From NCBI GenBank assembly GCA_964016885.1, contig CAXHJY010001737.1, forward strand, positions 112,046 to 176,045: a stretch of 64,000 nt of DNA. The letters run 5' to 3'. Made by a program: the position numbers and the translations under genes. This document shows positions 6,122 to 13,248 of the stretch, one piece after another (within the stretch, counting starts at the first letter, position 1; each line of letters begins with the position of its first letter). The notes beneath the pieces were generated by a model, which saw nothing but the letters and a program-made list of their open reading frames with translations, ran no database searches and was not told the DNA's origin. This DNA comes from Eledone cirrhosa. Its lineage: Eukaryota.

Positions 6122-6633
6122 AGAAGAAGAAATAGGAAAGATCAGAGTAAGAGAAAGAAAAAACGGAAAACATTTTTTCACGGGAGAAAAGGGGTGTATT
6201 GATCCCTTGATCCCCCATCTCTCTCCCTCTTTATATATATATATATATATAGTGAAAAATAAAAGTGTTGAACAAACGAACAACGATGGTTGCTAGACAC
6301 TACGGCTTAATACGGGATGTTTGTTTACAAACACACCGAGCATTATAATAAATGTTCGGTGAATCCATACGTACATATATATATGTGTGCATGTATGTAT
6401 ATATATATATACATACTACTGTACGTCTGTATACATATATGTATGTACGTGTACATACTTATATTTAAGTAACAGCCGTACTAAGAGTGGGAAATGAAAT
6501 TTCGTTTCATTTTTTCCGTTTATCGTTTTCGGTGCACCCGGCCGATTAACCCACTCGATATGCAAATTGGGCTATTCAGCCGTTAATATGCATAAGGTAA
6601 GTATATACGTTCAACAATCTGGCAGGAAGGTAT

Positions 6634-6676
6634 ACGTTGCTGACGATAGCTAATAAGCTTGAAACTAGTACAGCGT
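6634..6676 (+). ncRNA. Minimal type I hammerhead ribozyme (family A)
   Basis: ACGTTG-CTGACGA-t-AGCT-aata-AGCT-t-GAAAC-TA-GTA-CAGCGT, with palindromic stem III ACTAGT. Confidence 0.9.
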
Positions 6677-7055
6677 TCCTTTGTCAGTGTTGAACAAACG
6701 AGCAACGATGGTTGCTAGACACTACGGCTTAATACGGGATGTTTGTTTACAAACACACCGAGCATTATAATAAATGTTCGGTGAATCCATACGTACATAT
6801 ATATATATGTGTGCATGTAAGTATATATATATACATACTACTGAACGTCTGTATACATATATGTATGTACGTGTACATACTTATATTTAAGTAACAGCCG
6901 TACTAAGAGTGGGAAATGAAATTTCGTTTCATTTTTTCCGTTTATCGTTTTCGGTGCACCCGGCCGATTAACCCACTCGATATGCAAATTGGGCTACTCA
7001 GCCGTTAATATGCATAAGGTAAGTATATACGTTCAACAAACTGGCAGGAAGGTAT

Positions 7056-7098
7056 ACGTTGCTGACGATAGCTAATAAGCTTGAAACTAGTACAGCGT
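7056..7098 (+). ncRNA. Minimal type I hammerhead ribozyme (family A, second monomer)
   Basis: Identical to 6634-6676, 422 bp downstream. Confidence 0.9.
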
Positions 7099-9294
7099 TC
7101 CTTTGTCAGTGTTGAACAAACGAGCAACGATGGTTGCTAGACACTACGGCTTAAGACGGGATGTTTGTTTACAAACACACCCAGCATTATAATAACTGTT
7201 CGGTGAATCCATACGTACATATATATATGTGTGCATGTATGTATATATATATAAATACTACTGTACGTCTGTATACATATATGTATGTACGTGTACATAC
7301 TTATATATATATATATAAACACATAAGCATGTTTATATATATATATATATATATATATATATATATATATATATATATATATATATATATATATATATAT
7401 ATATATATATATATTTATATATATATATATATATATAAACACATAAGCATGTTTATATATATATATATATATATATATATATATATATAAACACATAAGC
7501 ATGTTTATATATATATATATATATATATATATAAGACACAGACAAAGAAAAGCGACGCAATATAGAATAAAAGTAAAGTTGGTCTGCGTAAAAATGTTTT
7601 CACTAAAATGATTTCTCCCCCGCAAACTTGATCATCGTTGCCGACATTTTGTTACTTCGATTAGCTTTTCCGCCATTTTCTGTCCAAATAATTTCCTCTC
7701 TATCTCCTTTTTTCATCCCCATATATATATATATATAACTATTTATAATATATATTCTATTTGCACCCACACTCCAGTGTATATATATATAAATATATGT
7801 ATATATATATATTATATAAATATATATATATATAAAAATATATATATATATATATAATAAAAAATTGAACAGGGACAGAACAGAGAGGCAGTACGACAAA
7901 TGTTTATTAGCTTCACGCTCAGGAGAGTGGGGTATATATATATATATATATATATATATATATATATATATATATATATATATATATATATATATATATA
8001 TATATATATATATATATATATATAAATATATGTATATATATACACCATGTCTATAACTAGCAAACCCCGCTCCACATTTAATGGTCACCATCATCATCAT
8101 CTCCGCTTTATTCAACACGACAACGCTAATAGCTCTGCTCAATTTGTATATATACATATATATATACACATATATATACATTTATATATATATATATATA
8201 TATATATATATATATATATATATATATATATATATATATATATATATATATATATATATATATATATATATATATGTATATATACACATATATATACATT
8301 CATATATATATATATATATATATGTGTATATATACATATATATATATGTTTATATACACACATATATATATATATATATATATTAGAAAGATCGAGTATC
8401 GAAAAATCGGCGCACGAGTTAACGAAAAACGAAATCCGATATGAGCGGCAGAGGGCTCAATAATTCAGATGAATCAGAGCTATAACTATCGTTAAAATAC
8501 CGTCACATATAGAACAAGTCTACAATCAACCATACGATTTAAAATCGATAAAGGAAGATTCGGGCCAAACAAATAAAAAATATCAATAAAACAATACGTC
8601 AATAATTTAAATGAATGTAAAATCATACCCGGACCCACTAGAAAGGTGTTAAATCTAGCTTCATGGGTTTCTGTAAATCCTTAGACAGTACTCTATCAGC
8701 TCACATATAAATATAAAAGCCTACTAGAATAAGTGGAATGGAGTTTACGTCGTCAACGAGTTTTATCCTGGCGGCAAAGGAGTCAACTAGCGGTGAAAAA
8801 CGCACATGGCATTAGACAAGGGAGATGACCCCTATATCCGCGAAAATAATTCGAGTGAATGTGGAAATACACATATCGAATTATATATATATATATATAT
8901 ATATATATATAAGTGCGATATTTCTCTTTTGGAGATGTGGGGTTGTGAGTGAGGGTGTGAGATAGAGAATAGGTGTGAGAGGTAGAGAGACTGCGAAAGA
9001 GAGAGAGAGAGAGCGAGAGAGAGAGAGAGAGAGAGAGAAAGAGAGAGAGAGAGAGAGAGAGACGTAGATAGAAAGAGAGAGGGGGAAGAGAGAGAAGCGT
9101 TTATTCATTCTACTAAATAGTAATCCAACCCATGATAATAATAATAATAATCGTAACAACAACAACAACTAAAGTATTATTATTGCAGCTAAGTGTACTT
9201 ACACTATACAATAGAAGCAACAACAATAGCAACAACATCAACATACACACATATATAAAACTGCACATACCCAAGGCAGACACATCTGTATTCG

Positions 9295-9800
9295 GCAAGA
9301 AGAAGAAGGAGAAGAAGAAGAAGAAGAAGAAGAAGAAGAAGAAGAAGAAGAAGGAGAAGGAGAAGAAAAAGAAGAAGAAGAAGAAGAAGAAGAAGGAGGA
9401 GAAGAAGAAGGAGGAGAAGAAGAAGGAGGAGGAGGAGAAAAAGAAGAGAAGAAAAAGGAGAAGAAGAAAAATAAGAAGGAGAAGGAGAAGAAGAAAAAGA
9501 AGAAAGGAGGAGGAGGAGGAGGAGGAGGAGGAGAAAAAGAAGAGAAGAAAAAGAAGAAGAAGGAGAAGAAGAAGGAGGAGAAGAAGTGGGAGGAGGAGAA
9601 GAAGTGGGAGGAGGAGAAGAAGAAGAAGAAGAAGAAGAAGAAGGAGGAGGAGGAGAAAAAGAAGAGAAGTAAAAGAAGAAGAAGGAGAAGAAGAAGAAGG
9701 AGGAGGAGAAGGAGAAGAAAAAGAAGAAGGAGGAGGAGAAGGAGAAGAAGAAAAAGAAGAAGAAGGAGGAGGAGAAGGAGAAAGAGAAGACGAAGAAGAG
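9295..9800. repeat. (GAA)n/(GGA)n polypurine tract
   Basis: Read directly; it produces the spurious poly-K/R/E ORF. Confidence 0.95.
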
Positions 9801-9842
9801 GACAACAACAACAATAATAATAATCATAATTTTCTCTACTCT

Positions 9843-11372: not shown

Positions 11373-11539
11373 ATATATATATCATATATATATATATATA
11401 TATAATATATATATATATAAATATATATATATATATATATATATATATATATATATATATATCGATATATATATACAAGAATACATACTCATGTACATAT
11501 ATATATTGTATATATATATGTCTAAGTCTAAAGTCTGTC

Positions 11540-11805
11540 TTAAGCCAGAAGGTTCATTTGGCCGGTGCTTATCCCGGTATCATGGCGTGAAGCAACTGAG
11601 AGTACAAGACACCCCCCTGGACAGGATGCCAGTCCATCACAGGATTAAACCTCCAGCTATTGATGGTACTCATTTTCAGCTGAGTATACTGGAGCAACAT
11701 GAAATGAAGTGTTTTGCTCAAGAACACAACACGCAGCCCAGGAATCGAACCCACGACATTATGATTGTAAGTCCAACACTCTTGCCACTAGGCCACCTGC
11801 CTCCA
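11540..11805 (-). mobile_element. tRNA-derived SINE
   Basis: Minus strand has A-box tggcctagtgg, B-box gggttcgattcc and core gtgttcttgagcaaaacacttcatttcatgttgctcc. Confidence 0.75.
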
Positions 11806-12130
11806 CTACGTATGTGTACACATACCCCCCCCCTATATATATATATATATATATATATATATATACTATGCAAATATTTAAGTATCCTTGTTTATATGTT
11901 TGTTTTTGTCGCTTTGGAGATTTATGTACTTACTTGTGTGTTTATGTAAACAATATATATATATATATATATATATATATATATATATATATATATATAT
12001 ATATATATATATAGAGAGAGAGAGAGAGAGAGAGAGAGAGAGAAAGAGAGAGATAAGCAGAACAAGCAAGATTCAAACAATTCTTTAAAATAAATAAAAA
12101 AATATAATTTAAATATTTACCTATTCCAAT

Positions 12131-12214
12131 TGCTTTTACCGATCGGTTTCACTTCACAAAAGATTGGAGATCCATAGGGACCTCCAATGGAAAAGTTTAG
12201 ATCATCAGAAAGCA
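12131..12214 (-). ncRNA. Type I hammerhead ribozyme (singleton family)
   Basis: Minus strand TGCTTT-CTGATGA-[stem II with hairpin attggaggtcc/ggatctccaat]-GAAAC-CGATCG-GTA-AAAGCA. Stem III is the palindrome ACCGATCGGT; the stem II base pairs weakly. Confidence 0.75.
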
Positions 12215-12410
12215 TTTTCATTTCCTAGGACTAAAAGTCTCAGGAACGGCAAAATATATTGCCAACTGCCAGCTAGCACAGTATCGAATGGGGCCGAAAA
12301 TTTGACCTATGCATGAACCAGATATATATATATATATATATATATATATATATATATATATATATATATATATATATATATATATATATATATATATATA
12401 TATATATATA

Positions 12411-13248
12411 TAAATGTAAGTATGTATGTATACGTACATACATATATGTATACAGACGTACAGTAGCATGCATATATATATATATATATATATATATATA
12501 TACATATATATACACATATGCATACAGGTACACATACATATATGCACGCATCAGTTTAGCCGACGTTTATTATAACGCCTGCTTTGTTCGTTTGTTTGTC
12601 AACAAATCGAACAGCCTGAATTTATGTATGTATACATACATACATAAATTTATGTACGTATACATACATACTTACATTTAAGTAAGTGCCATACTAAGAG
12701 TGAGAAATGAAATTTCGTTTTCATTTTTTTCAACTTATCGTTTTCGGTATGCCTGACCAATTTAACTCACTCAATATGCAAATTAGGCTGCTCAGCCGTT
12801 ACTTTTCATAAGGAAAGTATATACTTTCGAACGTTCAACTATCTGGCAGATGGGTAAACGGTGCTGATGATAGCTAACAAGCTTGAAACTAGTACATCGT
12901 TCCTGTGTCAGTGTTGAACAAAAAGGTGACGTGGTTGCCTTAACACCGTATGGCATAAATTCAGGCTGTTCGATTTGTTGACAAACAAACGAACAAAGCA
13001 GGCGTTATAATAAACGTCGGCTAAACTGATGCGTGCATATATGTATGTGTACCTGTATGCATATATATATATATATATATATATATATATATATATATAT
13101 ATATATATATATATATATATATATATATATGCATGCTACTGTACGTCTGTATACATATATGTATGTACGCATACATACATACTTACATTTAAGTAAGTGG
13201 CATACTAAGAGTGAGAAATGAAATTTCGTTTTCATTTTTTTCAACTTA
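12411..13248 (+). mobile_element. Family A retrozyme-like copy with inverted 5' segment
   Basis: About 12411-12626 is the reverse complement of ~12954-13192. The forward part covers more than one monomer. Flanked by (TA)n. Confidence 0.8.
12857..12901 (+). ncRNA. Minimal type I hammerhead ribozyme (family A variant)
   Basis: AACGGTG-CTGATGA-tagctaacaagctt-GAAAC-TA-GTA-CATCGTT. Changes fall at N7, in loop II, or keep stem I pairing. Confidence 0.9.

Follow-up and report, generated by a model that had tools for sequence, protein, structure and literature searches.

The 422-nt repeat found in the analysed window, a 64,000-nt stretch of Eledone cirrhosa contig CAXHJY010001737.1, belongs to the known non-LTR retrozymes, as a new family. 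Its insertions carry the marks of Penelope-like elements (PLEs), and we consider it probable that the repeat is a non-autonomous, retrozyme-type retroelement for which PLEs supply the reverse transcriptase and GIY-YIG endonuclease. Viewed as a ribozyme, the repeat is an ordinary type I hammerhead (HHR) retrozyme, whose oddity in helix II has already been published.

The first-pass annotation had described a 2.5-mer array of 422-nt units and two dispersed, diverged copies with HHRs. In agreement with this, TRF placed a tandem array at 6264-7306 (period 422, 2.5 copies, 97% matches), and the four HHR cores begin at 6640, 7062, 11055 and 12864, all on the + strand. Both dispersed copies exist and are diverged, but each is a head-to-head insertion with an additional inverted arm that had been missed. 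E1 and E2 below are the two fixed 3' ends of the repeat, located 213 and 274 nt after the cut and 61 nt apart.

6264..7303, + strand: insertion 1, about 2.5 monomers of 422 bp head to tail, young subfamily; (TA)n tracts on either side; 3' end at E1 (no tail)
6462..6522, + strand: 61-nt optional tail, E1 to E2, with conserved hairpin; first unit, recurring at +422
6629..6676, + strand: HHR 1, type I; cut site placed by HHR numbering
6634-6639 with 6671-6676, + strand: HHR 1 stem I; bulge 6629-6633
6640-6646, + strand: HHR 1 core; GAAA at 6661-6664
6647-6660, + strand: HHR 1 helix II, with U·U base and 6-nt loop
6664-6669, + strand: HHR 1 palindromic helix III
between 6670 and 6671, + strand: HHR 1 predicted cut (GUA)
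6671..7092, + strand: one full monomer, cut site to cut site, the predicted 422-nt RNA or circle; same stretch as L001:1702-2123
7051..7098, + strand: HHR 2, same as HHR 1 at 43/43 nt
10789..10905, - strand: insertion 2 inverted arm, about 117 nt, terminating at E1 beside a TA-rich tract
10903..11372, + strand: insertion 2 direct arm, about 470 nt, terminating at E2, then (TA)n
11049-11091, + strand: HHR 3 in insertion 2 direct arm; pair 2.3:1.3 is A-U
12420..12635, - strand: insertion 3 inverted arm, about 216 nt, terminating at E1, then (TA)n
12630..13248, + strand: insertion 3 direct arm, about 619 nt, longer-monomer subfamily, terminating at E2, then (TA)n
12858-12900, + strand: HHR 4 in insertion 3 direct arm; pair 2.3:1.3 is G·U

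The family counts at least 25,800 copies in the 3-Gb genome, with monomers of 419-538 nt; most of the loci that we read were drawn from the first 28 Mb of one contig. GC content was 31-39% in 45 monomers and the longest ATG frame in the young monomer was 51 aa, matching the GC content below 50% and lack of coding capacity of non-LTR retrozymes. No reverse transcriptase or GIY-YIG endonuclease ORF is present in the monomer, so it is not an autonomous PLE, and none of the loci mapped had an LTR layout. Tandem copies follow head to tail with no ORF between units. The family and its subfamily variants were also present in contigs of four runs from three organisms, which has no bearing on transcription. 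Our literature search found no description of octopus retrozymes; the family may already be present in Repbase, Dfam, subscription papers or the supplements to PMC7229834 and to the 2026 preprint (bioRxiv 10.64898/2026.07.22.740005).

The motif carries the type I core C3-U4-G5-A6-N7-G8-A9, G12-A13-A14 and A15.1-U16.1, a NUH cleavage site and three helices with stem I open, and the core is intact in all four window copies and in 72/81 loci. A 28-nt core pattern had 25,800 exact matches in the genome and its reversed control had none, so the motif does not arise by chance. Metazoan HHRs usually share the palindromic helix III, which is suited to cleavage as a dimer (PMC4209133). At the base of helix II, the expected G10.1-C11.1 or other purine-pyrimidine pair is replaced by U·U in 81/81 loci. 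This pair had been flagged as atypical, rightly, but it is not new, as axolotl HHR_Amex2 has the same (accessible text of PMC7229834); since that HHR cleaves, the departure does not exclude a type I HHR. Searching the literature for further U10.1·U11.1 cases returned none.

An Rfam search of the whole window gave no match at the gathering score. A narrow scan aligned the motif to Hammerhead_HH9 (RF02275) with a score of 19.7 bits (E 0.0075), far under the gathering score of 52; the core, the bulge of stem I and the 6-nt loop II line up in register. Unlike in HH9, the helix II base is U·U here and helix III is shorter. An e-value scan of 6200-13400 (best 150 of 219) yielded low-complexity miRNA-type matches on TA-rich stretches and no HHR, and these matches were rejected as composition artefacts.

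Stem I had been read as ACGTTG/CAGCGT, ACGATG/CATCGT and ACGGTG/CATCGT, sequences that we confirmed in the window copies, and its pairing had been described as always kept. This description rests on one base pair, 2.3:1.3, the only one in stem I that covaries. In 81 loci this pair was U·G in 43, G·U in 25, A-U in 8, U×U in 2, C-G in 1, U-A in 1 and a gap in 1; genome-wide, in one fixed background, we counted U·G 4,370 times, A-U 1,723, U×U 146 and A×G 59. All covariation counts given here, those for the whole-monomer fold below included, rest on a few subfamilies and therefore on few independent events. Stem I covariation is thus a single pair inherited by clonal subfamilies, which had been overstated.

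Indications of selection came from the distribution of variants. Diverged pairs of window copies are identical at 39-41/43 nt of the HHR, compared with 73-84/100 in the flanks. Within the 43 nt, changes are confined to pair 2.3:1.3, N7 and one loop II base, much as first annotated, but the stem I bulge just outside varies too. In a set of 48 loci, picked with an anchor outside the HHR, columns with shared variants made up 5/43 of the HHR versus 61/186 of the flanks (p=0.005); core, helix II and helix III together had 0/24 (p=2e-4 against the same flanks). Core-dead variants occur only at decay level (G5 243, G8 363 and G12 315 matches), in contrast to a variant of loop II that has expanded into a subfamily (about 558 matches). 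These sequence patterns support purifying selection on the HHR in source lineages. The suggested selection for self-cleavage across cycles holds to this extent, but the rest of the monomer is selected too. Its flanks do diverge visibly, as had been noted, but not freely: one block of 29 nt beyond the HHR recurs exactly, with 25,925 matches.

Structure prediction shows that selection extends to the rest of the monomer, which is structurally conserved in the modelled folds. The circular fold of monomer 6671..7092 was predicted at -132.5 kcal/mol (z -6.8), and z ranged from -4.6 to -10.5 in 4/4 monomers (30 shuffles each), a score that the TA-rich stretch raises. In these four monomers the predicted circular RNA is highly self-paired, as in other non-LTR retrozymes, and the monomer ends pair with each other to close the predicted fold. 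When the fold predicted from the young monomer alone was compared with a subfamily about 19% diverged, 12 pairs were lost against 26.5 expected, and 7 double changes were found against 2.1 (P ~0.002). Both-side changes occurred at 13/121 pairs in 14 monomers, in a structure derived from the same alignment. Two short insertions (L224 and L226) contain two adjacent core-dead HHRs each and no detected intact HHR, so apparently not every insertion depends on cleavage. Core-dead HHRs were also present on both arms of three head-to-head insertions (L227-L229).

The insertion footprint is defined by fixed 3' ends and variable 5' ends. (TA)n adjoined 143/152 3' ends in 105 loci, a raw count in a TA-rich genome, and corresponds to the PLE bias for (TA)n or AT-rich DNA. 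Among head-to-head pairs, 44/45 (40/41 loci) combined E1 with E2, so that one arm carries the tail, and E2 + E2 was never seen; an optional tail with an inverted, 5'-truncated arm is a PLE-type feature. Arm lengths were uncorrelated (Spearman 0.09, p 0.57, n=41), arm junctions mostly had a 0-9 nt overlap or a short insert, and in 5/41 pairs the E2 arm was the tail only, at 55-59 nt. One copy, L107, interrupts the reading frame of a PLE; its end abuts target DNA directly, and it is flanked by a 9-bp target duplication; it is the one target site duplication (TSD) read, TSDs being unreadable within (TA)n. The cut is not the starting point of any of the 58 listed 5' ends, and the arms cross it, which makes linear cut monomers unlikely as the main template. 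In the literature we found no paper giving the E1+E2 rule as a count, the tail asymmetry itself having been described qualitatively.

PLE copies of this genome show the same pattern, with 10/11 outward-facing pairs mixed. Mixed E1+E2 pairs, as in these PLEs, and uncorrelated arm lengths point to twin-primed copying by a PLE enzyme. A young PLE family with long open frames is also abundant in the genome, with 32,788 candidates and frames of up to 1,119 aa. According to the accessible text of PMC3846280 and PMC8557442, PLEs may carry a tail on one inverted pLTR and have TSDs of 9-10 bp. In work with a purified PLE protein, both strands were cut and extended, and synthesis began at two sites within the RNA, which delimit the tail (PMC11167929). 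PLEs have been proposed as mobilisers of retrozymes (PMC7229834 and bioRxiv 10.64898/2026.07.22.740005, as far as accessible). Against the PLE model stand the findings that reverse transcription in vitro starts in the same way on both target strands and that HHR cleavage is not needed for insertion (PMC11167929), and that 8/9 predicted Xenopus retrozymes failed to cleave in vitro (accessible part of the 2026 preprint), as well as the core-dead HHRs in adjacent units (L224, L226) and on both arms (L227-L229). No PLE similar to the monomer or tail was found among families with readable 3' ends (A, C, B3, B4 and several by eye) in a partial survey, in which several further PLE families appeared only as fragments. 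Of the 58 listed 5' junctions, several of them TA-rich artefacts, the only direct joins to PLEs were L134 and two rows of L107. Neither was retained as evidence of a partner: the L134 junction between family and PLE frame may stem from a template switch or from an insertion that deleted target DNA, and L107 is a plain insertion.

In the mechanism that we propose, arrays would be transcribed and the HHRs would cut the RNA into monomers, probably as dimers via the palindromic helix III; by analogy with coral, mussel and axolotl retrozymes, monomers may then be ligated into circles. PLE protein would bind the structured tail region and nick both strands of an AT-rich target, one nick priming cDNA at E2 and the other at E1. 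Each cDNA would extend variably past the cut or ligation site, on a circle or an uncut multimer, which would yield tandem units, and the two cDNAs would be joined by microhomology. A more specific scheme, which we offer tentatively and would not bet on, has a dimeric PLE enzyme on one circular ribozyme RNA, using two fixed sites 61 nt apart, one per nicked strand, with each active site rolling round the circle. It would cover the PLE tail, the head-to-head arms, tandem arrays, and AB-AB arrays as dimer circles cut only at the better HHR (L110, L212, L221). Of four two-unit-spaced cases inspected, L221 was the only clean AB array; exactly one intact HHR per higher-order unit fits L110, L212 and L214, with a probability of about 0.1 by chance alone.

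Three other origins were weighed against copying by PLE enzymes. The repeat might be the orphaned pLTR, solo or tandem, of one PLE family, moving only within PLE transcripts. The succession of HHR, then 200-300 nt, then optional tail is that of PLE copies here, and the accessible part of the 2026 preprint reports that 24/57 Xenopus retrozyme families match known transposable elements, nearly all of them PLE ends. However, the absence of any ORF between tandem units, the 51-aa limit on coding, the closed predicted fold and the canonical HHR, where PLE pLTRs here bear minimal ones, all speak against it, and at the loci read no family copy ran on into a shared PLE ORF. We regard this origin as unlikely. 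A pLTR ancestry of the repeat is in itself compatible with copying by PLE enzymes.

It is more doubtful still that a LINE mobilised the repeat, as a SINE or otherwise, with head-to-head forms made by L1-type twin priming or cDNA fold-back. LINE copies with endonuclease and reverse transcriptase domains are present in the window and the five tail-only arms resemble classical twin priming on one RNA, but the repeat itself lacks both poly(A) and a simple 3' tail, as the end of L107 illustrates. ARAGORN found no tRNA gene in 6000-13500, although a decayed head could escape detection. In most pairs here, both arms contain the same sequence as far as the fixed ends, which is not the known pattern of L1 inversions. 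Fold-back (self-priming) is ruled out by arm length as the general origin of the inverted arm, 20/41 pairs fitting neither direction. We give slightly less credence again to satellite DNA spread by unequal crossover, rolling-circle DNA and gene conversion, with the HHR a relic whose conservation reflects recent homogenisation. Long aged arrays (L213, L214, L217, L219) do have 18-26 substitutions between neighbouring units and higher-order periods, and core-dead HHRs have been amplified inside such arrays (L223, L225), so local DNA-level expansion probably acts on old arrays. A comparison of neighbouring units gave a mixed picture: among the matches listed, adjacent units shared the same core-dead mutation in 3/300 cases, against 4/100 for N7 purines (p=0.07 for the difference) and 16/100 for the loop II subfamily variant. 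Satellite spread does not account for 3' ends fixed at two sites while 5' ends vary, nor for the E1+E2 rule, the duplicated target or the absence of shared catalytic-core variants between subfamilies about 19% apart.

Copying by PLE enzymes thus remains our preferred reading, and the insertion marks of Penelope-type retrotransposons on retrozyme copies point to how such repeats spread in a genome. Retrozyme mobilisation in animals is still a hypothesis and the making of the PLE tail and inverted arms is unsettled in the accessible literature. The value of this family lies in being a test system for both: it offers over 25,000 insertions with a near-invariant one tail per insertion, a short structured RNA in which compensatory changes mark where protein probably binds and starts, and, within one genome, PLE families that have long open frames. 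If the two-site, two-strand reading is true, the 422-nt RNA would be a minimal natural substrate for PLE reverse transcription.

Compared with metazoan non-LTR retrozymes, for which PMC7229834 in its accessible text gives monomers of 150-450 nt, the monomers here are at or above the range; two fixed ends and an E1+E2 rule are not described in that text. Axolotl HHR_Amex2 of Rtz_353 shares the U·U at the helix II base and a short, 2-bp helix III, and showed 22% cleavage as a monomer and more as a dimer (same text); it differs in host, apparently in sequence, and in having a tetraloop where loop III is 2 nt here. Xenopus non-LTR retrozymes are likewise proposed as non-autonomous PLE partners, there linked by pLTR homology (accessible part of the 2026 preprint), whereas the link here is the insertion footprint, homology not having been found among the families read. 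EN+ PLEs, including Poseidon_Ac and the Hydra clade, resemble the repeat in their one-arm tail, inverted 5'-truncated arm, (TA)n or AT-rich targets, 9-bp TSD and HHR upstream of the 3' ends (PMC3846280, PMC8557442 and PMC11167929, accessible parts). Unlike them, the repeat has no reverse transcriptase or endonuclease ORF, and its HHR is canonical where theirs is minimal. Its tail of 61 nt is longer than the 30-40 bp quoted for PLEs in those parts but matches the tails of one PLE group of this genome, at 58-59 nt.

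The 422-bp hammerhead (HHR) repeat forms the array that the first-pass annotation had proposed, with 2.5 copies at window positions 6264-7306 (TRF), and its four annotated HHRs were all recovered on the + strand, with cores beginning at 6640, 7062, 11055 and 12864. In all four, stem I is 6 bp long, helix II starts with U·U and is capped by a 6-nt loop, and helix III, a 6-nt palindrome, precedes the predicted GUA cut, which from the motif would separate 6670 from 6671 in copy one. An Rfam scan of the window returned nothing reaching the gathering score; in a narrow scan, the motif aligned to Hammerhead_HH9 (19.7 bits, E 0.0075, gathering 52) with the same register at the core, the bulge and loop II. 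The young subfamily, which is the monomer type of this array, contains a consensus-type 5' splice-donor-like site (6594-6602 and 7016-7024) some 40 nt before the HHR, and older subfamilies diverge from it there. In the 2.996-Gb source assembly, exact matches to the 28-nt core pattern numbered 25,800, against none for the reversed pattern used as control. The 45 distinct full monomers among the fetched loci measured 419-538 nt; family monomers have a GC content of 31-39%, and the longest ATG frame of the young monomer is 51 aa. The family was also found in contigs of three organisms, and a retrotransposon protein beside it had its best named relative in Octopus vulgaris (68% identity), pointing to a probable octopod host.

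Family copies have variable 5' ends, while their 3' ends are fixed at two sites, E1 and E2, which in the young subfamily lie 213 and 274 nt downstream of the cut and so bound a 61-nt tail. (TA)n follows 143 of 152 ends (105 loci). The two window copies annotated as dispersed are present, but both are head-to-head insertions, like many of the family. Such pairs joined E1 to E2 in 44 of 45 cases, with one E1+E1 and no E2+E2; by locus, 40/41 were mixed (p about 4e-11 versus an even split), and choosing loci by a tail anchor would enrich E2+E2, not deplete it. The lengths of the two arms showed no correlation (Spearman 0.09, p 0.57) across 41 of 42 pairs, the remaining pair being excluded for its 574-nt spacer, and most arm junctions showed an overlap of 0-9 nt or a short insert. 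The tail alone (55-59 nt) made up five of the E2 arms, the next shortest measuring 105 nt; the detection pattern misses arms under about 55 nt. Fold-back of the cDNA, considered as a source of the pairs, was rejected for 20 of 41, whose arm lengths are compatible with it in neither direction. At loci L046 and L047/L052, inverted fragments of Penelope-like elements (PLEs) have family insertions at their centre, with TA on either side, which suggests that palindrome centres are favoured as targets.

This footprint is the signature of PLEs. In PMC3846280 and PMC8557442, PLEs are described with a tail that may be present on one inverted arm, as in our family, and with 9-10-bp target-site duplications, a range that includes the 9-bp duplication around a family copy lying within a PLE frame without TA (L107). 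Hydra-clade PLEs insert in (TA)n, which also follows most ends of the family. According to PMC11167929, Poseidon_Ac protein in purified form can cut as well as extend each of the two strands, and it initiates at a pair of internal RNA sites that delimit the tail. The Eledone cirrhosa genome is rich in PLEs, and among scorable outward-facing PLE pairs 10/11 were E1+E2. In one abundant PLE family (32,788 candidate matches, frames up to 1,119 aa), the 3' region contains a minimal HHR and 58-59 nt separate the two ends; Hydra-like families, named by their CxCX5C motif, have tails of about 90-95 nt. Comparing the ends of these PLE families with the repeat revealed no sequence likeness, and tail length weakly favours the abundant group as the partner. 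The window holds the following PLE copies and other repeats:

2-1342: fragment of another Hydra-like PLE family
5735-5915, 46600-46730, 55070-55260 and 55340-55410: hairpin-forming repeat family
13253-13478, 46390-46575, 46985-47190 and 55445-55645: palindromic MITE-like repeat of about 200 bp in (TA)n
21000-25600: two Hydra-like PLE copies, 5'-truncated and head to head, RT and endonuclease with CxCX5C linker; frames 21657-23249 (-) and 23175-24934 (+)
30400-40400: LINE in two tandem copies, ORF1-like frame and endonuclease-RT frame, the second copy internally deleted
44940-46360 (-): another HHR repeat family, with five type I HHRs in units of 310 bp, ending in (TA)n
46869 and 58035 (+): further repeat holding a related pair of CUGANGA...GAAA motifs whose helix II-like stems are long
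56145-57143: abundant PLE family, short copy in head-to-head form with the endonuclease end; a minimal HHR lies near 56892, and only the inverted arm has the tail

A Pfam search of the pair at 21000-25600 gave no match. The 310-bp family, also seen at L051/L052, shares the HHR layout of the 422-bp family: a similar bulge precedes the 6-bp stem I, loop II has 6 nt and helix III is palindromic. The base of its helix II is A-U instead of U·U. The CUGANGA...GAAA motifs possibly mark a third ribozyme-bearing family. In the hairpin-forming copy at 5735, an HHR-like core carries G in the A9 position, and the MITE-like repeat adjoins 422-bp family copies at further loci. Elsewhere, an abundant-family PLE (L181:1098-4457) has a long stretch rich in asparagine upstream of RT, reminiscent of the N-rich inserts that rotifer PLEs carry. 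A young Hydra-like family (L026:1060-1400, L185-L199) has an HHR-like motif in its 3' region, in which A replaces U4 and helix II starts with U·U; the motif is kept in nearly all of 15 loci. Some copies of this young family (L003, L044) contain an additional intron-like segment, which begins at a splice-donor-like site and which other copies lack.

Covariation in stem I had been read as selection for self-cleavage. In 81 HHR-spanning loci among 106 examined (one copy per locus), systematic stem I variation was confined to pair 2.3:1.3 (U·G 43, G·U 25, A-U 8, U×U 2, C-G 1, U-A 1, gap 1); genome-wide, in a single fixed background, the counts were U·G 4,370, A-U 1,723, U×U 146 and A×G 59. Mismatches make up only about 3% of states, but the covariation concerns this one pair, and clonal inheritance by itself would also couple both sides. 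The diverged window copies agree at 39-41 of 43 nt in the HHR versus 73-84 of 100 nt in the flanks. Across 48 loci picked via a non-HHR anchor, variants common to at least three loci occupied 5/43 HHR columns versus 61/186 flank columns (p=0.005), and 0/24 columns of the core, helix II and helix III (p=2e-4). Core-dead variants, mutated at a catalytic position, amount to about 1% each (G5 243, G8 363 and G12 315 matches) and look like decay following insertion, while a loop II variant gave rise to a subfamily (558 matches). Because subfamily-level variants spare the core and helices II and III and core-dead changes resemble post-insertion decay, these sequence patterns support selection acting on the ribozyme, as originally proposed.

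The flanks are constrained as well as the HHR. A 29-nt non-HHR block had 25,925 exact genome matches, and circular folds of four monomers shared a similar architecture with z of -4.6 to -10.5, scores inflated by a TA-rich stretch. Omitting that stretch, we applied the structure predicted from the young monomer alone to a subfamily with about 19% divergence: of the 28 changed pairs, 16 remained paired and 12 were lost, versus 26.5 losses expected, and double changes numbered 7 versus 2.1 expected (P about 0.002). The reverse direction was weaker (4 double changes, P 0.06). RNAalifold on 14 monomers gave both-side changes in 13/121 pairs, several in long-range helices near the tail; these events are few and the structure derives from the same alignment.

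Near-homogeneous short young arrays occur at L216, L218, L143 and on the + arm of L150, and old long arrays resemble ordinary satellites. L110 and L212, selected by spacing so that no frequency estimate follows, alternate exactly, with 10-16 substitutions between neighbouring units (lag 1), mostly none between every second unit (lag 2), and a helix-breaking change in every second HHR; in a period-4 array, one HHR in four is unscathed. Such arrays fit an origin by reverse transcription around dimer or tetramer circles, but coincidence would give the pattern with a probability of about 0.1. Follow-up of the dead HHRs was mixed, with one further AB array (L221). Because dead HHRs were adjacent in two short insertions (two each in L224 and L226) and lay on both arms of three others (L227-L229), cleavage seems to matter for the lineage's long-term success, not for each insertion; a PLE result in vitro accords with insertion independent of cleavage (PMC11167929).

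Beyond these DNA-level features, which are directly observed, we consider it probable that the family is a non-LTR retrozyme, a structured RNA copied by a PLE enzyme. Its arrays would be transcribed and the RNA cleaved into circles, which the enzyme would copy by priming from both target strands at the two fixed sites, E1 and E2. Our literature search, with repeat databases and supplements outside its range, found no account of this family or of a counted E1+E2 rule.

The HHR shares its palindromic helix III with the standard metazoan design, in which a short helix of this kind permits dimer cleavage (PMC4209133). Its U·U, called atypical by the first-pass annotation, is present in 81/81 loci but was already known from axolotl: in PMC7229834 (Cervera and de la Peña), HHR_Amex2 has the same mismatch at the base of helix II and cleaves to 22% as a monomer and far better as a dimer. 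That paper also treats the retrozyme-PLE link as a hypothesis, for which the insertion footprint provides direct genomic support. In Xenopus (bioRxiv 10.64898/2026.07.22.740005), the link rests on pseudo-LTR (pLTR) homology, whereas our family is tied to PLEs by its insertion footprint.
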